A stretch of 24,000 bases of DNA. Origin: Promethearchaeota archaeon (GTDB taxonomy: Archaea; Asgardarchaeota; Lokiarchaeia; Sigyniarchaeales; SOKP01). The stretch lies in assembly GCA_030599585.1 (NCBI GenBank), contig JAUVNS010000005.1:146941-170940 (forward strand), written 5' to 3'. Every line of letters starts with the position of its first letter. The stretch's first letter is position 1. The position numbers and the translations under genes are program-made. The notes beneath the pieces were generated by a model. The model made no database searches. It saw only the letters and a program-made list of their open reading frames with translations, and was not told the DNA's origin. Positions 2,836 to 20,892 of this stretch are shown one piece after another.

Positions 2836-3130
2836 TTCTTACCAAACAATTAAAAAAAAATAAATTCTTTTAAGTTGTAAAAGATAATTCTCATTATAAA
2901 AAATATTTGACGATTGAATAACTGAAAATTAGGTAACTTTTAGTTAGAAAAGGGTAAGACCCTTTAAATTCCGACAAAAGTTTCAAAATATTGTCAATTC
3001 TTTTAAATAAGACTAAAGATATTAGTATAATAAGATAAAAATTTATATGTGTAAAACATATAATAATCGTTGAAGATAAAGATTTAAATATTAAACAAAA
3101 CAAATTTAAAAAAAATATAAGATTTAAAAA

Positions 3131-3722: not shown

Positions 3723-5432
3723 TTGAAACTTATGACAGAAGATATTATAAGACGGACAACGAGTATTTGCCCAGAATGCTTACAACCCATTCCAGCGGAG
3801 ATCTATGTTGATCCAGAAACTAATTGGGTCATGATGAGAAAAGATTGCAAGGAACACGGGCATTTTAAAGACAAACTTTCCATCGATCCAGATGAATACA
3901 AATGGGGCGAAACTTTCACTGACGACATAGGATCTACAGTCGATAACTCTACTAAACCTGAATATGTTAGTTCAGGTTTAAAGGAGTGTGTTGAAGGCTG
4001 TCCATACGATTGTGGCCTCTGTGAAAATCATAAAAGCGCACCTAATATATGCCTAATCGATATTACAAATCGCTGTAACTTAACCTGCCCAATTTGTTTT
4101 GCTAACGCAAGCGCGAAAGGGTATGTTGTAGAACCTACGCTCGAACAAGTCTTCCAAATAATGGAACATTTCAGGTCAATGAAACCTGTTCCAGCAGTTA
4201 TGCTCCAAATATCTGGGGGAGAACCTACGATCAGAGATGATCTTCCAGACATCATCCGGGAAGGAAAAAGACTCGGTTTCTCTGAAGTAATGGTTACAAC
4301 TAACGGTATAAGGTTCGCCAAATCGATTGACTTTTTAACGAAGTGCAAAGACGCGGGAATGGATGCCATCTATTTACAATTTGATGCAACTGACGATCCT
4401 GAAGCTTGGAAAAAGGTTCGTGGCGTTAATTTATGGCCGTTAAAGAAACGTGTTATTGAAAACTGTCGCAAAATTGGATATTTTGGTTTAATGCTAGTTC
4501 CTGTTATAGCCAAAGGAGTTAACGACCACGAAGTCGGAAACATTTTAGACTTTGCTAAGAATAATAGCGACGTGGTTTCTGGAGTAATTTTCCAGCCAGT
4601 CTCACTTTGTGGACGGATCAGTTTTGAAGAACTGATGGATTTAAGATATACAACCTCAGACCTCAAAGTAGCAATAAATAAACACACAAACAATGCTATT
4701 GAAAAATTCTATCCTATCGCAACTACAGCAAAAATGACCCGTTTATTAGCTTGGTTTGATAACATGCCCGAATTTGGTATGACGAGCCATAAAGATTGTG
4801 GGTTTGCCACAATACTCATCGTTAACGATAAAGACGAATGGGAATCCCTCGATGATTATTTTGACGCAGAAGGACTTATTAAGTGGTCAAACAAGGTTTA
4901 TGACATGGTTCAAGGAAAAGAAGTCCCAAAACCAACTGGGTTCTTAAAAGGTATAAACTTGCAAGATTTCGGGGCTGTAGCTAGTACTGTAGGGAAATTC
5001 ATAGACGAAATGACTGATTTAGGATATCGGCAAATGATGAAAGCTTATTATTTTGCTGGAGGAATTAAGTTCGTAAAACATCCAGAAAAAATCTTAACGA
5101 GTAAAACCTACCAGAGTTTTGCACGAGTTATCGCTTCCCCGAACTTAGCAAGCGCCGCGAACTTCCTTCATAACAAGAATCTAATGATCTCAGCTATGCA
5201 CTTTCAAGATGCCTACAACTTCGATTTGGACAGAGTTTGTAGATGTTTAGTCCATTATGGTGTAGTAGATCCAGAAGACAACACAAAAACATTGGAGATA
5301 CCATTTTGTGCTATGAATACACTACACAGGGAAAGAATTGAACTTGCAAACGCCATTAAAGGCGAGGAAGCTAAAAAAGCCGAAGTTATTCAAGCAGAAA
5401 TTAAAGAGCTTTTAGAAACCGTAAAACAATAA
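3723..5432 (+). CDS. Radical SAM enzyme with N-terminal zinc ribbon; MJ0619 / tetraether-lipid-synthase (Tes, GDGT-MAS)-like family candidate
   Basis: Radical SAM CxxxCxxC motif in RCNLTCPICFAN. An additional Cys cluster GCPYDCGLCENH lies just upstream. The N-terminal CPEC...C..H forms a zinc-ribbon pattern, and GGEPT is a SAM-binding glycine-rich motif. The ORF-track start is TTG 3723, but ATG at 3732 is the more likely start. The Tes-like assignment rests on recalled family architecture, not a search. Confidence 0.85.
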   Translation: MKLMTEDIIRRTTSICPECLQPIPAEIYVDPETNWVMMRKDCKEHGHFKDKLSIDPDEYKWGETFTDDIGSTVDNSTKPEYVSSGLKECVEGCPYDCGLCENHKSAPNICLIDITNRCNLTCPICFANASAKGYVVEPTLEQVFQIMEHFRSMKPVPAVMLQISGGEPTIRDDLPDIIREGKRLGFSEVMVTTNGIRFAKSIDFLTKCKDAGMDAIYLQFDATDDPEAWKKVRGVNLWPLKKRVIENCRKIGYFGLMLVPVIAKGVNDHEVGNILDFAKNNSDVVSGVIFQPVSLCGRISFEELMDLRYTTSDLKVAINKHTNNAIEKFYPIATTAKMTRLLAWFDNMPEFGMTSHKDCGFATILIVNDKDEWESLDDYFDAEGLIKWSNKVYDMVQGKEVPKPTGFLKGINLQDFGAVASTVGKFIDEMTDLGYRQMMKAYYFAGGIKFVKHPEKILTSKTYQSFARVIASPNLASAANFLHNKNLMISAMHFQDAYNFDLDRVCRCLVHYGVVDPEDNTKTLEIPFCAMNTLHRERIELANAIKGEEAKKAEVIQAEIKELLETVKQ

Positions 5433-6900: not shown

Positions 6901-8061
6901 ATGGTAACAATGAAAGAATTATCAAACAAGATAAGAAACGCTCCAAAATCAAAAATACGTGAACTTTTTGACCTTGCTGCGGGACGATCAGATGTTATAA
7001 GCTTAGGGATTGGGCAACCGGATTTTTCCACGCCTCAACCCGCAATAGAGGGGAATATTAATGCCTTAAAAGAGAAAATCACATATTACGCCCCTACGAA
7101 AGGTATTCCAGAATTATTACAGCATCTAGAAACCAAATTAAATTCTGTGAATAACATTAAAACAGCCTGGAAAGATAATATTATTATTACAAACGGCGGT
7201 TCCCAGGCTCTTCATCTTGCTTTTGCCTCCATTTTTAATTCTGGAGATGAGATAATAATTTCCTCTCCAAATTTTATCTCTTATTTCTATTTGAGTGCTT
7301 TTTTTGACTTAAGAGTGATTGAGGTTGAGAGGAAAAGCGACTTTAGTCCTAATATTGACAAAATAAAGAAATCAATTACTGATAAAACTAAAGCGATTTT
7401 AATTAATTCACCTAACAATCCAACTGGATATTCGTTAAGCACAAATGAATTACAGGAGATCGTTGAAATTGTTAAGAAACACGACTTATATTTAATCTCC
7501 GATGAAGTGTACGAAAATTATCTATACGACGATTCCAAGCATACAAGTCCAGCTTCGTTAAATGATATGTTTGAACGGACTATTACTATAAACGCCATGT
7601 CAAAACTGTATTCTGCTACGGGATTTAGATTAGGGTATGTAGCTGCAAGTAAGGATATAATAGATACAATGGAAAAATATCATCAATATACCGTAGCAGG
7701 TACAAACCACGCGGCTCAATATGGTTTTTTAGAGGCTTTAAAGATGGGTAGTAGTTTTTTTGACGAAATTTTAAAGAGTTTTGATGAAAGACGTTTATTA
7801 GCTTACAATCGTTTAACCGAATTGGGTTTTGATGTTGTTAAGCCAAAAGGAGCTTTTTACGTTATGCCGAAAATCAACGATTTTGGGTTAACTGGTGCTG
7901 AATTTTCGAAAAGAATAATGAAAGATCAGGCAGTCGCAATAGTTCCAGGTAATATTTTTGGATCTTACTCAGAATATATGTTAAGAATGTCTTATGCGAC
8001 TAAATTAGAAAAGCTCGAAGAAGCGATGGATAGGATTGAAAAATTTGTAAAAAAAATATAA
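6901..8061 (+). CDS. Class I/II PLP-dependent aminotransferase (aspartate/aromatic aminotransferase-like)
   Basis: NSPNNPTGY motif, the PLP-lysine block SKLYSATGFRLGY, and DEVY. The 386-aa length is typical of the family. Confidence 0.85.
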   Translation: MVTMKELSNKIRNAPKSKIRELFDLAAGRSDVISLGIGQPDFSTPQPAIEGNINALKEKITYYAPTKGIPELLQHLETKLNSVNNIKTAWKDNIIITNGGSQALHLAFASIFNSGDEIIISSPNFISYFYLSAFFDLRVIEVERKSDFSPNIDKIKKSITDKTKAILINSPNNPTGYSLSTNELQEIVEIVKKHDLYLISDEVYENYLYDDSKHTSPASLNDMFERTITINAMSKLYSATGFRLGYVAASKDIIDTMEKYHQYTVAGTNHAAQYGFLEALKMGSSFFDEILKSFDERRLLAYNRLTELGFDVVKPKGAFYVMPKINDFGLTGAEFSKRIMKDQAVAIVPGNIFGSYSEYMLRMSYATKLEKLEEAMDRIEKFVKKI

Positions 8062-8064
8062 ATT

Positions 8065-9192
8065 CTATTTTTCTAAATAAGTTCGTATTAGAGCTTGAGA
8101 TAGATATTCTGTTGATTTTATAACGTCATCTATCCTTATATATTCATCTGGTTTATGGATTACTCCTGGGTCTCCTGGTCCATAGATCACAAATGGAATA
8201 GCATTCTTTTTTTGAATGAGAACACCCGCATCTGTAGCGTAGGGTAAGCCTATAATTTCTTTTCCATTAATCTTTTTTAAATTCTGAATAAATGGAATTT
8301 CCATATCAGTCTGAAGTGCTGGGAGTGTATGGGTAATTTTTACTTCTAATTTACAAGGAGAAGCATTGATCGACCGTAATTTCGCATTTAATCTTGCAAA
8401 ATCTTGTTCAGGGATATATCTATAGTCAACAGATAAAATAGTTTTATTTGGAACTATATTGTACGCGACTCCTCCTGAAATTTTCCCAATATTCAGTGTA
8501 GAGGAGCCCAGAAATCTATTTTCAACATCATCCAAACATTCATGAAGTTGTGGAACAATTTTTAATGCACACTCAATAGAATTTATTCCGCCTTCGGGGG
8601 TTGAGGCATGTCCGGGTTTTCCATTAATATGGATATCTGCCCATAATAATCCTTTTTCGGCTATACCTATATTCATATTAGTTGGTTCTCCAACTATAAG
8701 TAGAACAGAATCTTTCATAAAACCCTTTCTAGCAAAGTTATAAGCTCCAGTCATACCAGATTCTTCATCCGCACTAGCTAAAAAGAAAATTGTGTAATTT
8801 TCTAATAATTCCGGATATTCTTTTAGATTTATTAATGTTCCAATAAGCATGGTTAATCCTCCTTTCATATCACATGCCCCTCTACCATACAATTTTCCAT
8901 CAATAACTTCAGCAGAGAACGGAGGATACTTCCATTGTGAATCTTCACCTGCCGGTACAACATCCAAATGCCCTGAGAGCATTATTTTTTCCTTACCAGT
9001 TCCGATTCTTGTTATAAGGTTCTTTAGCTCGATACCTTTTTTTCTGTAATTCATGACCTCATTATGAAAACCGTCAGACTCCTTAAAGATATCCGTGATT
9101 AGGTAGTTAATGATTTCATCGGTTTTCCCAGGTGGATTCTCCGTAGGTATTTGTACTAAATTCTTAAGAATTTGCTTTAAATTAGCTTTCAT
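8065..9192 (-). CDS. M20 family metallopeptidase/deacylase (ArgE/DapE-like)
   Basis: LSGHLDVVPAG, GRGACDMKGG, ADEESG and GHAS motifs match the M20 metal and catalytic residues. The gene is convergent with the aminotransferase, with a 3-nt spacer. Confidence 0.85.
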   Translation of the reverse strand: MKANLKQILKNLVQIPTENPPGKTDEIINYLITDIFKESDGFHNEVMNYRKKGIELKNLITRIGTGKEKIMLSGHLDVVPAGEDSQWKYPPFSAEVIDGKLYGRGACDMKGGLTMLIGTLINLKEYPELLENYTIFFLASADEESGMTGAYNFARKGFMKDSVLLIVGEPTNMNIGIAEKGLLWADIHINGKPGHASTPEGGINSIECALKIVPQLHECLDDVENRFLGSSTLNIGKISGGVAYNIVPNKTILSVDYRYIPEQDFARLNAKLRSINASPCKLEVKITHTLPALQTDMEIPFIQNLKKINGKEIIGLPYATDAGVLIQKKNAIPFVIYGPGDPGVIHKPDEYIRIDDVIKSTEYLSQALIRTYLEK

Positions 9193-9366
9193 GAATCATC
9201 TAATCAATTTAGAATTTGATGTATAAAAACTTTGAAAATCATAATAAATTTTCCCTTTTTAGAATTTATCGACAAACATCTGTTAAAAATCTCTATGAAC
9301 TCTAATTATTGTACTCATTTAGTATAAAAATAGAGAAAAAATAGAATTTAACAAAATGTAAACAAA

Positions 9367-10626
9367 TTAAATGTAATCCACTTCAAATGGAGTTTTTGGG
9401 AGTACCTCTGCTCCTTTTTTAGTAATCAATGTTGGAGATTCTAACCTTAGTCCACCAAGTCCAGGACGATTGAATACAACAGCAGCAATTTCGACCATAT
9501 ATTCTTCAAAGACCATAGGACCCCATTCTTTGCCAGGTACTACTACTGGCCACGATTCATTCCCTATAAGACCAATTCCGTGGCCTAATCCAAAGAAAAG
9601 ATCATTAGCATAACCTTCTTTATCAGCTACTTTTCTAACCGCTTGGTAACATTCCTCAAAGGTATTTCCAGGGTACATGTTATCAATAAGAGCGTAACAT
9701 AGTTGCTCGTATACATCATTAAATTTTTTTAGCTTAGATGGGCACTTTCCTAGCACGTAATTATGGCTTAAATCTCCGAGATAACATCCATATTCGCTGT
9801 GTAAATCTACAAGCAAGGATTCTCCCTCCTCTACTTTTTTGTTCGTCGCAGGCGTGCATCCATTAAAAGTCCAACTCGCTCGATAACCAGAACCTATTTC
9901 TTGACTACCGGTAAATGTCCATTCATAATTACTACCAGCTTTTCTCATCGCAAGGGTCCCTATACCTGCGATTTCGTTCTCAGTAAAAACTTTTCCTCTA
10001 GGTCGTTCACTTAATGCTTTTTTCACAGCTATCTGGCCAATATCCGTAATTTCGCTTGCCTTCCTTAACATCGCTATTTCTTCGGGCTCTTTAATAAATT
10101 GAATCCTCTCAGTCTTCTCGTTAAAATCGACTAATTCACATCCAGGAAAAATCTGCTTAAGTAATTGTGCTTCCGTATAAGAGAGCATTTGCCCAGTAAT
10201 ACAAATATCCAAGCCCAGTTCTACTCCAATTCGAGGAGGAGATCCTTTCGGATTGTATAATCCCGTCTTTTTTGCGATTGATTGAATTTTTTTTTCCCAG
10301 AAAAATCCTTTCATAGGACCCCACCCACTCACGTTTTTTAGGTGACCCTCCGCCTTAACCCGTTCAACATCTAAAAGGACCGTAAATAGTGAGGGATCAC
10401 CAGCTCCCTCTTTTGGTAAAAAAATTGCACTTTTCCAAGGAACAAAACATCCTGTTAAATAGGTAATTGATTTAACTCGAGTAAGAACACAAAAATCTAG
10501 GTTGAGTTCTTCCATTGCTGTTTGATATTTTTTAATATGTCCTTCCCAATTTATCTCAATTTCACTCATTTTCATTTCACTATGTTTTTTTACATTTTTT
10601 GCTTGATGGTTATAATTTAATTTCAT
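9367..10626 (-). CDS. M24 family peptidase (Xaa-Pro aminopeptidase/creatinase-like)
   Basis: Pita-bread metal ligand blocks: VDLHSEYGCYLGDLSHNY (D..D), GHGIGL (H), EEYMVEIAAV and GGLRLESPTLITKKG (E, E). It also has a creatinase/prolidase-like N-domain. The true start may be an internal Met (MKMSEIE). Confidence 0.8.
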   Translation of the reverse strand: MKLNYNHQAKNVKKHSEMKMSEIEINWEGHIKKYQTAMEELNLDFCVLTRVKSITYLTGCFVPWKSAIFLPKEGAGDPSLFTVLLDVERVKAEGHLKNVSGWGPMKGFFWEKKIQSIAKKTGLYNPKGSPPRIGVELGLDICITGQMLSYTEAQLLKQIFPGCELVDFNEKTERIQFIKEPEEIAMLRKASEITDIGQIAVKKALSERPRGKVFTENEIAGIGTLAMRKAGSNYEWTFTGSQEIGSGYRASWTFNGCTPATNKKVEEGESLLVDLHSEYGCYLGDLSHNYVLGKCPSKLKKFNDVYEQLCYALIDNMYPGNTFEECYQAVRKVADKEGYANDLFFGLGHGIGLIGNESWPVVVPGKEWGPMVFEEYMVEIAAVVFNRPGLGGLRLESPTLITKKGAEVLPKTPFEVDYI

Positions 10627-14600: not shown

Positions 14601-15218
14601 TTGATTAAATGGGATGAGGTTCTTGGTGGAAACATTTACATGAAGTTTCCGGAAGGATTAGAGGTTCTGGATAATGCAGTGCAACAAATCCAGATTTCAC
14701 ATAATTTTATCGAATCATACATCACTATTGAAGAAAAAAATTGGAACTCAATTTCTTATTATAACGAAAATAGAGAAATAATAATCGTATTAGTATTAGA
14801 CAAATACGATGATGGATCGGATTACACTGTAATACTAGATGAATTTAAGAAAGAGCTCGAGTTAGAATTAAGCGAAGCTGAGCTTAAAAAGCACTTGGAA
14901 AGAATCTATAAATTATCTTTAAAGGTATTTAGGACTAGGGACGAAGTAATTGGGAAGTTAAGCAATCAGGTCGCCCAATTAAAAACGATGGAATATGACT
15001 TGAAAAGACGATTTGAGAAAATTGTTAACGCTGACCACCTTAAAGTAAAAAGTAAAATCCAATTCTTATTAGCTGTAAATAATGAGATGAATTATAAAGA
15101 ATTACATAAATTAATTAACACTAGCAAAAATTGGCTCGATAAGGTCTTAGAAACTCTCACACAGAACAAGATTATTGGATATAGTGTTACAAAAGATACA
15201 TATTATCTTATTATATGA
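14601..15218 (+). CDS. Hypothetical protein: small N-terminal alpha/beta domain, coiled coil, C-terminal winged-helix
   Basis: The ORF opens after a TGA at 14574-14576. Candidate starts are TTG 14601 or ATG 14640. The middle region LELELSEAELKKHLERIYKLSL...QVAQLKTMEYDLKRRFEKI is heptad-like. The C-terminus KIQFLLAVNNEMNYKELHKLINTSKNWLDKVLETLTQNKIIGYSVTKDTYYL has an H1-H2-H3-wing wHTH pattern. Confidence 0.5.
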   Translation: MIKWDEVLGGNIYMKFPEGLEVLDNAVQQIQISHNFIESYITIEEKNWNSISYYNENREIIIVLVLDKYDDGSDYTVILDEFKKELELELSEAELKKHLERIYKLSLKVFRTRDEVIGKLSNQVAQLKTMEYDLKRRFEKIVNADHLKVKSKIQFLLAVNNEMNYKELHKLINTSKNWLDKVLETLTQNKIIGYSVTKDTYYLII

Positions 15219-16535: not shown

Positions 16536-16889
16536 ATGTCGCTGTCTTTAAAGAGGAATAAATTTCTCCAATTATTTCATAAAATCAGCAATAGTAAGAT
16601 TAGACATAGAGGACCTTTAATTTTAAGATTGTACGGTCTGTTAAATGAGGTAGACTTCGAGAACGAAAATCGATTCATCCTTTGTAATTTTATTGACCAA
16701 AATAGTGAGCTTTTCAGCCTAAGTAGAGATATTTACGAGATTAACAATGATGTGACCTTAAACCAATTGTTTCTATTCGCTTATAGCAAAGCTAGGATCA
16801 ACAATCTTATCCCAAACCTTTATTCTGAATACATTAATTCCATAAACGCCATATCTCAAAAAATTGATACTCAATCAAATCTGCCTTAA
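16536..16889 (+). CDS. Hypothetical protein (117 aa), no recognisable motif
   Basis: ORF with an ATG start. It occupies an otherwise empty gap on the same strand, 126 nt upstream of a small GTPase gene. Coding status is not independently supported. Confidence 0.4.
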   Translation: MSLSLKRNKFLQLFHKISNSKIRHRGPLILRLYGLLNEVDFENENRFILCNFIDQNSELFSLSRDIYEINNDVTLNQLFLFAYSKARINNLIPNLYSEYINSINAISQKIDTQSNLP

Positions 16890-17015: not shown

Positions 17016-17540
17016 ATGAGCATCGAAGCGAATTATATAGTGAAGATTTGTTTACTCGGAGAAGCTAATGTTGGTAAAACTTCATTAGTCTATAGATTTA
17101 TCGAAAACAAATTTAGAGGAAATTATAAATCTACCTTAGGTGTAAACCTATTAAAGAAAGATATGAAAATTGAAGAATTCGGGGATGTCTCTGCACAAAT
17201 CTGGGATTTAGGGGGCCAAGAAAGTTTTAAAAGCCTTCGCAAGCTGTATTTAGAAGGTGCTAATGGTGCTTTAGTTATATATGACAGCACTAAAAGAAGT
17301 TCTTTTGAAAAACTTTACGATTGGATTCAAGATTTCAAAGATGCTAGGGGAGACGAACCTATGCTTCTAATTGGGAATAAAAGCGATTTATCTGATAATA
17401 TTCTGATAGAAGACAGTGAAGCTATGGAATTAGCACAAAATTACAATATGGAATTTATATCCACTTCAGCAAAAACAGGTGAAAATGTCGAAGAAGCTTT
17501 TTTAAGAGTTATAAAGACAATTCTTGATAAGAGTTTATAA
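17016..17540 (+). CDS. Ras-superfamily small GTPase, Rab-like
   Basis: G1 GEANVGKTS, switch I YKSTLGVNL, G3 WDLGGQE, G4 GNKSDL, G5 STSAKTG. There is no C-terminal Cys (ends ILDKSL). Confidence 0.9.
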   Translation: MSIEANYIVKICLLGEANVGKTSLVYRFIENKFRGNYKSTLGVNLLKKDMKIEEFGDVSAQIWDLGGQESFKSLRKLYLEGANGALVIYDSTKRSSFEKLYDWIQDFKDARGDEPMLLIGNKSDLSDNILIEDSEAMELAQNYNMEFISTSAKTGENVEEAFLRVIKTILDKSL

Positions 17541-17722: not shown

Positions 17723-18394
17723 ATGGCAAAGAAAGAGGAAAAAGTTAAGGAAGAAGTCGAGGAAGAAAAAGACGTAGACGAAGCAAGCGAAGCCGATAAA
17801 GAAGCAGGTTTAGATTATAAAATTGAGAACGTAGTAGCAACTGTCGTTGTTGAAATCACAGAAAAGATCGATTTAAATATAATTGCTCGCAAACACGCAG
17901 ATGTTGAATATAACCCCGAAAGATTTCCTGGCTTAGTTATGAGAATTCTAAAACCGAAAGCTACAATCTTAATTTTTTCGACTGGTAAAATGGTGGTTAC
18001 GGGTTTAAGAAAAGCGAATGAAGCCGGACAAGTAGTAGAGAAAGTGTTAAAAAATATAAGAAAAGCAGGGATAAAAGTATCCAATCCCGAAATCACGATT
18101 CAAAATATTGTGGCAAGTGGAGATTTACACACGAATATCGATTTAAATATGGCAGCAATCATTATGGAGTATGCTATGTATGAACCTGAAGTATTTCCCG
18201 GTTTGATCTACAGAATGCAAGAGCCTAAAACGGTTTTTTTAATTTTCAGCACTGGTAGGATTGTTTGTACCGGAGCAAAGAATAAAGAAATAGTTAGAGA
18301 AGCAGTGAAGAAATTAAATAAGGAAGTACGCAAGTTAGGTGTCGCGAAAAAGGACTTAGGAAATCCCGACTATCAAGATATTACTTTTGTTTAA
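17723..18394 (+). CDS. tbp: TATA-box binding protein, paralogue 1, with a 29-aa K/E/D-rich N-terminal extension
   Basis: Two TBP repeats: IENVVATV...YNPERFPGLVMRI..PKATILIFSTGKMVVTG and IQNIVASG...YEPEVFPGLIYRM..PKTVFLIFSTGRIVCTG. Confidence 0.95.
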   Translation: MAKKEEKVKEEVEEEKDVDEASEADKEAGLDYKIENVVATVVVEITEKIDLNIIARKHADVEYNPERFPGLVMRILKPKATILIFSTGKMVVTGLRKANEAGQVVEKVLKNIRKAGIKVSNPEITIQNIVASGDLHTNIDLNMAAIIMEYAMYEPEVFPGLIYRMQEPKTVFLIFSTGRIVCTGAKNKEIVREAVKKLNKEVRKLGVAKKDLGNPDYQDITFV

Positions 18395-18477: not shown

Positions 18478-19164
18478 ATGACAGAAAAAAAGGAAAAAAT
18501 AGTCGAAAAAGAAGAAGAAATCAAGGATAAGGAAAAAGAAATCAAAGACGAGGAAGACGAAATCGAAGACAGAAACGATTTAGATTATAAAATTGAGAAT
18601 GTAGTTGCGACTGTTGTTGTCGAAATCACCGAAAAAATCGATTTAAATATAATTGCTCGCAAACACGCTGATGTTGAATATAATCCCGAAAGATTTCCTG
18701 GTTTAGTTATGAGAATTCTAAAACCGAAAGCTACGATCTTAATTTTTTCGACTGGAAAGATGGTAGTTACAGGGATGCGCAAAGCTTCAGAAGCTGATAG
18801 GGTTGTGGAGAAAGTGTTAAAGAATATAAGAAAGGCAGGCATAAAAGTATCCAATCCCGAAATTACGATTCAGAATATTGTAGCAAGCGGAGATTTACAC
18901 ACGAATATAGATTTAAATATGGCAGCTATCGTTATGGAATACGCTATGTACGAACCTGAAGTATTTCCCGGTTTGATCTACAGAATGCAAGAGCCTAAAA
19001 CGGTTTTTTTAATTTTCAGCACTGGTAGGATTGTTTGTACGGGAGCTAAGAAGAAAGAAATCGTTAGAGAAGCAGTGAAGAAATTAAATAAGGAAGTACG
19101 CAAGTTAGGTGTAGCGAAAAAGGACTTAGGAAATCCCGACTATCAAGATATTACTTTTATTTAA
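18478..19164 (+). CDS. tbp: TATA-box binding protein, paralogue 2, with a 34-aa K/E/D-rich N-terminal extension
   Basis: Same two TBP repeats as paralogue 1. There are 7 amino-acid differences in the 194-aa core, and the N-terminal low-complexity extension is unrelated in sequence. Confidence 0.95.
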   Translation: MTEKKEKIVEKEEEIKDKEKEIKDEEDEIEDRNDLDYKIENVVATVVVEITEKIDLNIIARKHADVEYNPERFPGLVMRILKPKATILIFSTGKMVVTGMRKASEADRVVEKVLKNIRKAGIKVSNPEITIQNIVASGDLHTNIDLNMAAIVMEYAMYEPEVFPGLIYRMQEPKTVFLIFSTGRIVCTGAKKKEIVREAVKKLNKEVRKLGVAKKDLGNPDYQDITFI

Positions 19165-19180: not shown

Positions 19181-19348
19181 AAGGATTCTCGCTTTATTTA
19201 AAGTTGCAATTTTTATAATTCTAAAACTATCAATATTTTAATCAAAAAAAAGAATATACTTACTATTAATACTTAATTGCTAAATCTACCTATTTTTTAA
19301 TACAACTAAATTTGAATTAGAAACTATTGAAAGTTGAGGTCCTGAAAA

Positions 19349-19840
19349 TTAGTCTTTTTGAAATACAATCATAAATTCGCAATGATCTTTTCCTGATTGT
19401 AAGCTACAATCGACCTCTTGTGCAAAACAATGATTATTTGTCATTTTTTCAACGAGTCCTGCCAATAAACCTGCTTCGAATGAACAAAAGCTTCCATCTG
19501 TTTTTATACCTTTATTAATGAGATCCTTTATGGAAGAATGTCCTTTAAGTTTTAATTGCACAATTTCTTCGCTACTTTCTATAATCTCGACATCGCCTAG
19601 GTTATATTCAGAGATTTTTTCTTTTAAAGCATTAGGAATATCTTTTACATCATCAATTTGTTTAACTTTTAAAATAGTTCCTAATTCGTGACCTAAATAG
19701 TAGAAAATAGCCTCTAACTGATGACCTAAAGCCAACAAAGCTCCTACTTTCATATCTCCAATCTCTTTTCCACCTTTCAAATGTTTCCTCATTTGTACTA
19801 AAATTTTTGAAAGCAATTGCCTATCCATTTTTTTATCCAC
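19349..19840 (-). CDS. V4R (4-vinyl reductase / Bet3-TRAPP-fold) domain protein
   Basis: The C-terminal block GSFCSFEAGLLAGLVEKMTNNHCFAQEVDCSLQSGKDHCEFMIVF matches the V4R signature (C-x-F-x-x-G-x-L-x-G ... E-x-x-C ... G-x-x-x-C-x-F). The 163-aa length is typical of stand-alone V4R proteins. Confidence 0.75.
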   Translation of the reverse strand: MDKKMDRQLLSKILVQMRKHLKGGKEIGDMKVGALLALGHQLEAIFYYLGHELGTILKVKQIDDVKDIPNALKEKISEYNLGDVEIIESSEEIVQLKLKGHSSIKDLINKGIKTDGSFCSFEAGLLAGLVEKMTNNHCFAQEVDCSLQSGKDHCEFMIVFQKD

Positions 19841-19863
19841 ACTCTATGTTTATATATTTGTGA

Positions 19864-20157
19864 TTATAATTTTACGGAAGATATAAATCCATATAATATT
19901 GCATCTATGATGTCTTCCTCTTGAATATTTACAGATAACCTCCTATCTGCCACAATAATTGTCGGTAATGAAGTAATCTTATATTCGTTAGTTAATTGGT
20001 AATTTTTTTCTACATCAATTTTTTGTATATACAATTTTTTTCCAAACATCGAAATATTTATTCTCTTTAACATCTGCTCAATTGGCAGGCACGGACCACA
20101 ATGGGAAGATGAAAAAAATAAAATTTTCGGATAACCTTGCTGAAACTTTTCTAACAT
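19864..20157 (-). CDS. Thioredoxin-fold protein with CGPC active-site motif
   Basis: ILFFSSSHCGPCLPIEQML matches the Trx CGPC redox motif following a beta strand. The cis-Pro region is ITSLPTIIV. The protein is 97 aa. Confidence 0.8.
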   Translation of the reverse strand: MLEKFQQGYPKILFFSSSHCGPCLPIEQMLKRINISMFGKKLYIQKIDVEKNYQLTNEYKITSLPTIIVADRRLSVNIQEEDIIDAILYGFISSVKL

Positions 20158-20197
20158 ACATCACCCTATATGTGCCGGCAAAACCTTTTTTTTTCAT

Positions 20198-20746
20198 TCA
20201 TTGATCCTTATATTTTTCATAAAGGTCTTTAATTATTGCTTGGAACGATTTATACACGCCATTTCCTGTCTTTGCGCTTGTTTTGTAGTATCCAAGAAAA
20301 TCTCTTTTATCAACAATCTCTTCTACTCTACTCTCATCTAGTTCCTCGTCATTAACTAAATCCATTTTATTTCCAAATAACACGATTGGAATATTTCCAC
20401 AGTATTTCTTAATATCCTCATGCCATTCTGAAATGTGCTTAAAACTATTATCAATTTCGTTTGGAGCAAGAGAAAAAACTATAATTGCGGCTTTACTACC
20501 CTTGTAAAAAGTAGGTCTCATAAATGAGAACTCTTTTTGTCCTGCTATATCCCAGAAGAAGAGTTTTACAGCGCTGTTTTCTATTTTCTCGTCATATTTA
20601 GAGAACTGTGCTCCTAAAGTCTTGATGTATTCTTTCTTAAAACTCCCTTTAGTATATTTTTTTATTAAGGAGGTCTTCCCTACTCCCCCATCTCCAATAA
20701 CTGTTATCTTGAAAACGAAATCCTTCCTCTCGTCACTTTCACTCAT
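20198..20746 (-). CDS. Ras-superfamily small GTPase, Rab-like
   Basis: G1 GDGGVGKTS, switch I YIKTLGAQF, G3 WDIAGQKE, G4 GNKMDL, G5 KTSAKTG. There is no C-terminal Cys (ends YEKYKDQ). Confidence 0.9.
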   Translation of the reverse strand: MSESDERKDFVFKITVIGDGGVGKTSLIKKYTKGSFKKEYIKTLGAQFSKYDEKIENSAVKLFFWDIAGQKEFSFMRPTFYKGSKAAIIVFSLAPNEIDNSFKHISEWHEDIKKYCGNIPIVLFGNKMDLVNDEELDESRVEEIVDKRDFLGYYKTSAKTGNGVYKSFQAIIKDLYEKYKDQ

Positions 20747-20892
20747 AAAATCACATTATAGTTTTAACTTGAATGTCTTTGTAATTTCTTTTACTTCTAT
20801 AGAATATAAATTATAAATAGTACTTTTTATTTATATTGCTTTTTATTATTAAATGGATTCTTATAAATTCTCCAGATTTTTAAAATATCAAA

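Follow-up and report, generated by a model that had tools for sequence, protein, structure and literature searches.

A conserved GTPase-thioredoxin-V4R gene triad in Lokiarchaeia as a candidate redox-gated GTPase module

Operons in which a small GTPase is encoded beside a regulator are known, and so are V4R redox sensors that are reset by thioredoxin, but the combination of the two, as it appears from the gene order presented here, was found described nowhere. It concerns three adjacent genes on the minus strand of a 24,000-nucleotide (nt) stretch of DNA from a Promethearchaeota archaeon (GenBank assembly GCA_030599585.1, contig JAUVNS010000005.1, positions 146,941 to 170,940; G+C content (GC) ~30%; referred to as the window), of which the first codes for a Rab/Ran-like small GTPase, the second for a small thioredoxin and the third for a stand-alone V4R protein (together referred to as the triad).

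Among the described systems, the methanogen-specific V4R regulator MsvR resembles the triad in that its V4R domain holds the same three conserved cysteines, and it acts as a thiol redox switch that is re-reduced by thioredoxin. However, MsvR unites an N-terminal winged helix-turn-helix (wHTH) domain and the V4R domain in one polypeptide and has a DNA-binding output, whereas the V4R protein of the triad stands alone and is co-encoded with a thioredoxin and a GTPase. The V4R cysteines C206, C232 and C240 of MaMsvR modulate redox-sensitive DNA binding, and redox control is lost in the C206A variant, which binds DNA whatever the redox state (PMC3729527). According to the account in PMC7278568 of the work of Sheehan et al. 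(2015), H2O2-oxidised MsvR was re-activated by the NADPH/thioredoxin reductase/thioredoxin system of M. acetivorans. The V4R sensors PoxR, MopR and DmpR, as well as MJ1460 and YslB (DUF2507), have the same fold as the triad protein and share the positions of a Cys/Glu zinc site with it, but in PoxR, MopR and DmpR the domain binds phenols and is joined to AAA+/HTH outputs, no partner has been assigned to MJ1460 or YslB, and none of these V4R proteins has been linked to a GTPase or a thioredoxin.

A similar comparison can be made with systems built around a GTPase. The TRAPP subunits Bet3/TRAPPC3, Trs31 and Trs33 and the archaeal Thor-TRAPPC3 (7YH3) share the alpha/beta fold predicted for the V4R protein (probability 1.0, template modelling (TM) score ~0.6), TRAPP is functionally associated with a Rab-type GTPase, and the zinc of Thor-TRAPPC3 is held by cysteines (PMC10933270). 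TRAPP, however, is a multi-subunit guanine nucleotide exchange factor (GEF), whereas the V4R protein has no TRAPP_Bet3 profile match and no longin partners in its operon, and Thor-TRAPPC3 has not been reported in an operon with a GTPase. A conserved putative operon in which the gene of a small Ras-superfamily GTPase adjoins those of candidate regulators is also known for MglA/MglB and, in Asgard archaea, for the LAMTOR1-like/Rab-like GTPase/DENN genes (10.1101/2020.10.19.343400), but the partners there are Roadblock, longin or DENN proteins and not a thioredoxin and a V4R protein.

Asgard archaea contain dozens of small GTPases, almost none of which has been matched to a regulator. Tran et al. 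(2024), who solved Thor-Rab and Thor-TRAPPC3 and modelled two V4R/TRAPPC3-like proteins of MK-D1, noted that the GTPases of MK-D1 generally lie outside operons with RB, longin and TRAPPC3 genes and that this scarcity of operons hampers the matching of GTPases to regulators (PMC10933270); a GTPase with thioredoxin and V4R partners is not mentioned by them. Few conserved neighbourhoods were found by Liu et al., whose preprint describes an ESCRT neighbourhood and the LAMTOR1-like/Rab-like GTPase/DENN operon and leaves thioredoxin, V4R and TRAPP unmentioned (10.1101/2020.10.19.343400), and GTPase neighbours are not discussed by Podar et al. (2008). An earlier note on this DNA, made from the letters alone, had stated that no experimental description of such a module was known; in line with this, a full-text literature search, out of whose reach many subscription papers lie, yielded no published account of a GTPase-thioredoxin-V4R triad.

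The genes of the triad and the spacers between them are the following, with Shine-Dalgarno (SD)-like motifs indicated.

20198-20746, minus strand: Rab/Ran-like small GTPase of 182 amino acids (aa) (Pfam Ras, 8e-43)
20158-20197, minus strand: GTPase-thioredoxin spacer of 40 nt, with SD-like GGGTGAT at 20160-20166
19864-20157, minus strand: small thioredoxin of 97 aa, with CGPC as its active site and SLPT as its cis-Pro motif
19829-19863, minus strand: thioredoxin-V4R spacer of 35 nt, with TATA-like AAATATATAAAC at 19848-19859 and SD-like GAGTGTGGAT at 19835-19844
19349-19828, minus strand: stand-alone V4R protein (Bet3-fold) of MsvR type, 159 aa, with conserved C115, H133-C134, E138, C141 and C150

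Our main finding is that this three-gene unit is conserved across Lokiarchaeia. When each GTDB species was scanned through one genome, relatives of the V4R protein turned up in 120 species; the best 80 loci were taken, and in 78 of them the upstream DNA suffices to judge the triad. In all 78 informative species-level Lokiarchaeial loci the genes follow each other as GTPase, thioredoxin and V4R on one strand, and the same order and strand were found in six of six informative divergent loci (L082-L087; GC 29-62%), whose V4R proteins are only 42-51% identical to that of the window and whose genes were checked for orthology to the triad by tblastn. Five of the divergent loci keep enough flanking DNA for a comparison, and their flanks differ from those in the window, as seen in L084-L087. 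Such a recurrence of the arrangement is far beyond chance. A survey of the gene neighbourhood had been set beforehand as a possible refutation of the module, and the synteny was kept in every informative locus.

Within the 78 loci the identity to the window ranges from 66 to 93% for the GTPase (77 loci), from 63 to 99% for the thioredoxin and from 72 to 97% for the V4R protein; for the flanking genes it is 58-91% (CinA) and 59-94% (M29 peptidase). The triad remained intact where the flanks changed, for instance by insertion of a major facilitator superfamily (MFS) gene in the clade of the window and of an extra membrane-protein gene in a gap of ~600 nt in another clade, and the block formed by a second GTPase gene (GTPase2) and a TATA-binding protein (TBP) gene lies on the same strand as the triad in 41 loci and is inverted in 27. 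The V4R subfamily itself is narrow: when 1.84 billion representatives at 50% identity were searched exhaustively with HMMER, no more than 18 proteins reached E<=1e-10, a handful of them full-length divergent ones. Of the records that carry the best 80 loci all except one, which comes from an actinobacterial bin, are labelled Asgard, mostly Promethearchaeota (the NCBI name of the Lokiarchaeial phylum). Several records with a Lokiarchaeia-type synteny and a V4R protein that is 77-92% identical (L007 (DATKTW010000097.1), L017, L019, L052 and other JBHL* records) bear other names in the database ('Candidatus Nanopelagicaceae bacterium', Odin-, Hod-, Hermod- and Thorarchaeota). As the whole locus is 60-90% identical, these odd labels are probably imprecise or belong to mis-binned contigs.

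The start of the V4R protein could be placed at the ATG at 19828 (MDRQLL), which is found in all 120 homologues listed and in independent gene calls on metagenome contigs with an identical protein; the spacer between the thioredoxin and V4R genes is therefore 35 nt and not 23 nt as the earlier note had it, whereas the 40 nt given there for the other spacer were right. The V4R signature seen by the earlier reader was recovered with Pfam V4R (PF02830; 6.5e-8, 33 bits against a cut-off of 31), next to DUF2507 (1.5e-8), and 30 of 30 family members match both. We obtained an AlphaFold2 (AF2) model with a predicted local distance difference test (pLDDT) score of 80.7, for which Foldseek returned a probability of 1.0 to MJ1460 V4R (1.4e-7, the best match), YslB, the sensor domains of MopR, PoxR and DmpR and Thor-TRAPPC3 (7yh3), and equally to TRAPPC3/Bet3 of Naegleria, Drosophila, mouse and human (TM 0.56-0.64); the entries with this probability include 2oso, 3njc, 5kbg and 1wc8. 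Judged by the model, the protein has the V4R/Bet3 fold and is no nearer to Bet3 than to the prokaryotic sensors.

The sequence comparison points to the prokaryotic branch. The nearest solved protein is MJ1460 (0.0028), none of the 30 family members matches Pfam TRAPP_Bet3 (PF04051) even at E<=10, and the sole NCBIfam match is MsvR (4e-11), between residues 30-154 and model positions 118-236, which form the V4R half of the model; the divergent triad V4R proteins match NCBIfam MsvR as well. The V4R protein, 159 aa long and devoid of an HTH domain, scores 43 bits against the 220-bit cut-off of the full-length model (NF053755) and so falls outside MsvR itself, but by its sequence it is an MsvR-type V4R protein, tied to that branch rather than to TRAPPC3. 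The view of the earlier note that V4R is the counterpart of the Bet3 family thus holds for the fold, on which the Foldseek comparison with TRAPPC3/Bet3 that it had called for agreed, and fails for the sequence, which is of MsvR type and without any match to the Pfam family. We also considered two proteins (P0130 and P0136) as Rosetta-stone fusions of V4R, and rejected them, since these calls are chimeric or truncated and attach V4R to unrelated enzymes.

The resemblance to MsvR extends to the cysteines. In the alignment, C115, C141 and C150 of the window protein coincide with the conserved cysteines of MsvR-like proteins (P0167, P0170, P0157 and P0168), their spacing is 26 and 9 residues compared with 26 and 8 for C206/C232/C240 of MaMsvR, and C115 is invariant in all 13 aligned V4R and MsvR-like sequences; the V4R protein thus has the three cysteines on which the redox sensitivity of the methanogen MsvR depends. 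The residues are well kept within the triads, in which C115 is present in 83/83, C134 in 82/83, C141 in 81/83 and C150 in 80/83 of the V4R proteins.

The thioredoxin is recognized by Pfam Thioredoxin (PF00085; 1.9e-8, 34.7 bits against a cut-off of 23.5), it remains far below the cut-off for the canonical TrxA (NCBIfam equivalog TIGR01068; 38.3 against 96.8 bits) and it matches the MJ0307-family model weakly. The alignments begin near position 18-25 of the model or of solved chains. Because the matches begin near residue 20 of classical thioredoxins, the protein is a short form without the N-terminal beta1-alpha1 element. The residue preceding the CxxC motif is H, Y or T, not W. The CxPC motif with both cysteines (C20 and C23) is invariant in 84 of 84 orthologues: in the window and the 78 loci (n=79) it reads CAPC (58), CGPC (14), CTPC (6) or CMPC (1), and in five divergent proteins CAPC (4) or CEPC (1). 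The cis-Pro motif S[VL]PT is present in 77 of 79.

The GTPase scores 146 bits with Pfam Ras (PF00071; cut-off 21.6). The earlier note had credited it with complete G1-G5 motifs and no prenylation cysteine, and we could read all of these (G1 GDGGVGKT, the switch-I Thr in YIKTLGAQF, G3 WDIAGQ, G4 GNKMD and G5 TSAKTG), conserved in the orthologues, and a C-terminus (...EKYKDQ) without cysteine. Its closest solved relative is Rab23 (2.8e-32), followed at similar E-values by Rab30, Rab43, Ran and Rab1A. It is not a Rab sensu stricto, as a prenylatable cysteine is absent from the C-terminus and the RabF-type motifs match only partly when read by eye; since the best solved relatives mix Rab and Ran and a C-terminal cysteine is lacking, Rab/Ran-like is the safe label. 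No conserved cysteine column was found among the GTPase orthologues, so that a target of the thioredoxin, if it lies within the module, would be the V4R protein.

The calls of the earlier note for the three minus-strand genes (a GTPase, a CGPC thioredoxin and a V4R protein) were all borne out by the open reading frames (ORFs) and by the Pfam families Ras, Thioredoxin and V4R, and we inspected the DNA between and around the genes for expression signals, the following of which lie outside the triad.

20803-20819, minus strand: TATA-like block TATTTATAATTTATATT, ~57-73 nt 5' of the GTPase ATG, candidate operon promoter
20750-20754, minus strand: SD-like GTGAT, 4 nt before the GTPase ATG
19244-19251, minus strand: T8 run ~100 nt 3' of the V4R stop, putative archaeal oligo-T operon terminator

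The TATA-like block is situated inside the 161-nt region between the GTPase gene and the divergent CinA gene, and an equivalent A/T block (AATATTTATAATTTATATTTT or AATAATATTGTATACTTTTGA) precedes the GTPase ATG by ~55-75 nt in nearly all related loci. It is plausible that it represents an archaeal TATA box with B recognition element (TATA/BRE), which would give a leader of ~35-40 nt. The SD-like sequence (A/G)(A/T)GTGAT, 4-6 nt 5' of the GTPase ATG, was kept in nearly every locus. Only upstream of the GTPase gene are a promoter-like block and an SD conserved; the other two genes are preceded by SD-like motifs. Before the thioredoxin gene the sequence GGCACATATAGG(G)TGATGT is conserved among near relatives of the window, with a GG(G)TGAT SD in the clade of the window, and before the V4R gene AGTGA/GGAG at positions -12 to -6 is conserved in the 80 loci. 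A scan for bacterial sigma-70 promoters gave 10 promoter-like sites where 10.1 were expected, and one for bacterial-type hairpin terminators gave none, so that neither was informative.

The junctions between the genes vary in length between the lineages. GTPase and thioredoxin genes are separated by 2-4 nt in 38 of 78 loci (typically TAGAAAATG) and by 31-43 nt in 36; in L082 and L083 the end of the GTPase gene is followed by a CAPC thioredoxin gene and then, after a gap of 9 nt with a GGTGA SD, by the V4R gene; in L084 the gaps are 15 and 38 nt, and in L085 each gene of the triad overlaps the next by 4 nt. Since gaps of no more than 2-4 or 9 nt, and overlaps of 4 nt, occur in several lineages and leave no room for a promoter there, an operon is well supported by comparison. 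Co-transcription is strongly supported by this comparison, from which we infer it for the window itself.

The spacer between the thioredoxin and V4R genes deserves separate mention, as the earlier note saw no clear TATA-like tract in either spacer and overlooked AAATATATAAAC (19859-19848). Across the loci this spacer is 27-90 nt long and A-rich on the sense strand; in the window it therefore lacks an oligo-T terminator. In the larger clade a TT(T/A)TA(A/T)AAA motif, read by eye, often follows the thioredoxin stop codon. TATA-like 8-mers such as those in AAATATATAAAC occur at chance frequency in the window (57 against 49.9±8.5 expected), and the closest relatives (L001-L004) do not share the tract. 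We considered a leaderless V4R promoter, with the TATA-like tract ~25 nt 5' of the ATG at 19828; this option is made less probable because the tract is absent from the closest relatives and because of the conserved SD-like motif at -12 to -6.

We propose that the module is a GTPase switch gated by thiol/zinc redox chemistry, in which the thioredoxin acts on the V4R protein; to this reading we give a probability of about 0.5. The V4R protein would be a thiol or zinc-thiolate redox sensor of MsvR type and, as is the case for other V4R/Bet3 proteins, probably dimeric, and oxidation of C115, C141 and C150 plus H133-C134 would alter its conformation. The co-encoded thioredoxin would be a dedicated reductant that resets the V4R protein, and the co-encoded GTPase would be the output, replacing the DNA-binding domain of MsvR. 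The redox state of the V4R protein would then set its binding to the GTPase and bias the GDP/GTP cycle, or it would govern binding as an effector, by which the cell would turn redox state into a GTPase switch; a role as GEF, GTPase-activating protein (GAP), guanine nucleotide dissociation inhibitor (GDI) or effector would all be possible. The suggestion of a redox input in the earlier note fits the invariant CxPC active site. The proposed chain from redox state via thioredoxin and V4R to the GTPase is a concrete hypothesis, and three small, probably soluble proteins suit work in vitro. The triad provides one GTPase with two fixed genomic partners throughout a class that includes lineages with cultured representatives, and it bears on the question of how Bet3-fold proteins first joined Rab-type GTPases.

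Several points weigh against this redox-switch proposal. Physical contact among GTPase, thioredoxin and V4R protein is presumed in it, and we know of no precedent for control of a GTPase by a V4R protein, save Bet3 within the multi-subunit TRAPP. In one divergent lineage (L086, with a genome of 4.36 Mb) the gaps within the triad are 409 and 260 nt, and the 35-nt spacer in the window and the A/T-rich spacers of 27-90 nt elsewhere could accommodate an internal promoter of the V4R gene. C141 and C150 were lost in the divergent loci L082 and L084 while the CAPC motif of the thioredoxin was kept, and a CxxC motif that is kept by deeper V4R members was lost in the clade of the window. Moreover, in PoxR and MopR a structural zinc is coordinated by the corresponding Cys/Glu positions, and Thor-TRAPPC3 is zinc-bound too (PMC10933270). 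Since the equivalent positions hold zinc in PoxR and MopR, the conservation of the cysteines may be purely structural. In an alternative reading the V4R cavity binds a hydrophobic ligand, in the manner of PoxR, MopR, DmpR or palmitoylated Bet3, the cysteines form a structural zinc site, the GTPase relays the occupancy of the cavity and the thioredoxin either keeps the zinc site reduced as a maintenance factor or has a separate role. On what we take to be the zinc-site numbering of MopR, C115 with E138, C141 and C150 reproduces the Cys/Glu/Cys/Cys spacing; the structure matches the sensor domains of MopR, PoxR and DmpR, the homologues are labelled 'predicted hydrocarbon binding protein' by JGI, and Tran et al. 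argue for ligand binding by Asgard TRAPPC3/V4R proteins (PMC10933270). A ligand sensor, however, leaves unexplained why a thioredoxin with an invariant active site stands between the two other genes in 84/84 loci, and two lineages lost zinc-site residues and kept the module, so that we regard this reading as doubtful.

The other alternatives differ from the redox switch in the relation between the products. The earlier note had suggested a minimal GTPase/regulator pair, which agrees with the tight and conserved same-strand module that we found, and had modelled it on TRAPP, for which we found no support. In that version the Bet3-fold V4R protein would be the GEF, or the core of a GEF, of the GTPase, a prokaryotic forerunner of TRAPP that the thioredoxin modulates. 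It draws on the match of the fold to TRAPPC3/Bet3 (TM 0.56-0.64) and to Thor-TRAPPC3 (7yh3), on the strictly conserved linkage to a Rab/Ran-like GTPase and on the fact that the best-conserved part of the V4R protein is its N-terminal helical pair (residues 24-50), equivalent to helices that presumably form a subunit interface in Bet3 proteins. Yet 0/30 members match TRAPP_Bet3 at E<=10, the sequence is nearest to MJ1460 and MsvR-type V4R, the structural matches to bacterial phenol sensors and YslB equal those to Bet3, and no longin gene is evident within the triad. The GEF surface of TRAPP (3CUE) is formed mainly by the longin subunits Bet5 and Trs23, together with the Bet3 C-terminus, and Bet3 alone is insufficient; no longin or Roadblock match was found with Pfam in the triad or in the scanned neighbours. 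The V4R family is confined to Lokiarchaeia, and closer homologues of TRAPPC3 are present in Thorarchaeota (PMC10933270), all of which makes this version quite improbable. A long shot, too, is the more specific claim that the V4R protein directly binds the Rab/Ran-like GTPase and, acting as GEF, GDI or GAP, governs the nucleotide state of the GTPase in a redox-dependent and thioredoxin-reversible manner. If it were true, it would constitute the first prokaryotic partnership of a Bet3-fold protein with a GTPase, and the TRAPP-Rab relation would have arisen from an archaeal redox-sensing V4R-GTPase pair. Finally, the genes could be co-regulated and otherwise independent, for example as a general stress operon or a syntenic block whose products do not interact directly. 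Among the 80 closest loci most of the wider block M29-CinA-triad-GTPase2-TBP has been kept as well, so that the synteny partly reflects relatedness, and internal promoters are possible. Nevertheless, the triad persists with entirely different flanks (L084-L087) at a GC of 29% to 62%, the 2-4-nt junctions and 4-nt overlaps imply coupled expression, and purifying selection is strong on all three genes, with the V4R protein at 72-97% where CinA and M29 drop to 58-59%; we therefore consider independence improbable.

A stand-alone MsvR-like V4R protein of 170 aa (P0143) was also found in another archaeal lineage, where a gene for an AsnC/Lrp-type HTH regulator follows 12 nt downstream (L088 1156-2130 and L089 1412-2386). 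The pair looks like a 'split MsvR', and the arrangement fits stand-alone V4R sensors that would act via a separately encoded output.

Several genes in the window are linked to the triad as conserved neighbours rather than as known parts of the module.

17016-17540, plus strand: GTPase2, a second Ras-family GTPase (Pfam Ras, 6.8e-48)
17723-18394 and 18478-19164, plus strand: two tandem TBP genes, convergent with the triad
14601-15218, plus strand: protein of 205 aa, with a weak winged-helix signal at the C-terminus preceded by a domain of unknown fold at the N-terminus

GTPase2 is found downstream of the V4R gene in 68 of 78 loci, and in most of them a TBP gene adjoins it. The TBP paralogues carry acidic or lysine-rich N-terminal tails, and the TBP duplication occurs only in some close relatives (L004 and L005). 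Just 5' of GTPase2 and on the same strand lies an ORF of 117 aa (16536-16889), without a Pfam or NCBIfam match, whose product may be a partner of GTPase2. The 205-aa protein belongs to a family of 205-215 aa that is linked to the triad across the class: its homologues follow directly after the V4R gene in L084 (1972-2619, minus strand) and lie near the triad in L086 (5992-6834, minus strand), and most other loci also contain one. The family shows weak HTH matches; the 205-aa protein belongs to no Pfam family, it has no significant match among PDB sequences in an HMM search and its AF2 model has a pLDDT of 35. The homology reaches 6 codons 5' of the TTG start in the window, in a stretch without a canonical start codon. 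In the GC-rich lineage of L085, three large genes for Gtr1/RagA-type GTPases and a histidine kinase gene are found just after the triad (7047-10480).

Another observation was that triad and TBP genes of some relatives are interrupted by inserts of 29-39 nt with stop codons or a frameshift, whereas the genes of the window are uninterrupted. The GTPase orthologues of eight loci carry inserts of 29-31 nt after codon 15/16, and in four loci the V4R gene carries an insert of 39 nt.

L024 3110-3138, L034 3110-3138, L053 3128-3156 and L058 1305-1333: inserts in the GTPase gene
L073 3105-3135 and 3310-3338: inserts in the GTPase gene, the second after F74
L064 ~1243-1272, L078 ~3083-3112 and L080 ~3088-3117: inserts in the GTPase gene
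L044 ~1973-2011, and L045, L061 and L072 ~4100-4138: in-frame inserts of 39 nt in the V4R gene, after A33

The insert in the V4R gene contains a stop codon (..GALLA[R*YVILNFLETIE]LGHQLE..), and the TBP orthologue of L036 has a stop-containing insert of 30 nt after about residue 134 of the second TBP of the window (TBP2). As GTPase, V4R and TBP orthologues are all affected, the phenomenon is not limited to one gene. In 6/6 strict cases a canonical bulge-helix-bulge (BHB) motif, in which two bulges of 3 nt flank a central helix of 4 bp and cleavage follows the second nucleotide of the bulge, coincides exactly with the unique frame-restoring junctions, as in TCAC[AG|A]...GTGA[AC|T] of a GTPase orthologue. 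A loose BHB pattern is unspecific (16 matches per kb), and only the coincidence with frame-restoring junctions is meaningful. The inserts look like BHB introns in Lokiarchaeial mRNAs; no account of BHB introns in mRNAs of Asgard archaea was found in the full-text literature search, with the same restriction on subscription papers. In the V4R genes the motif is near-canonical, as its central helix contains a single G·A mismatch, and the remaining inserts fit relaxed BHB forms by our own reading. The hairpin stems of the inserts show compensatory changes between loci.

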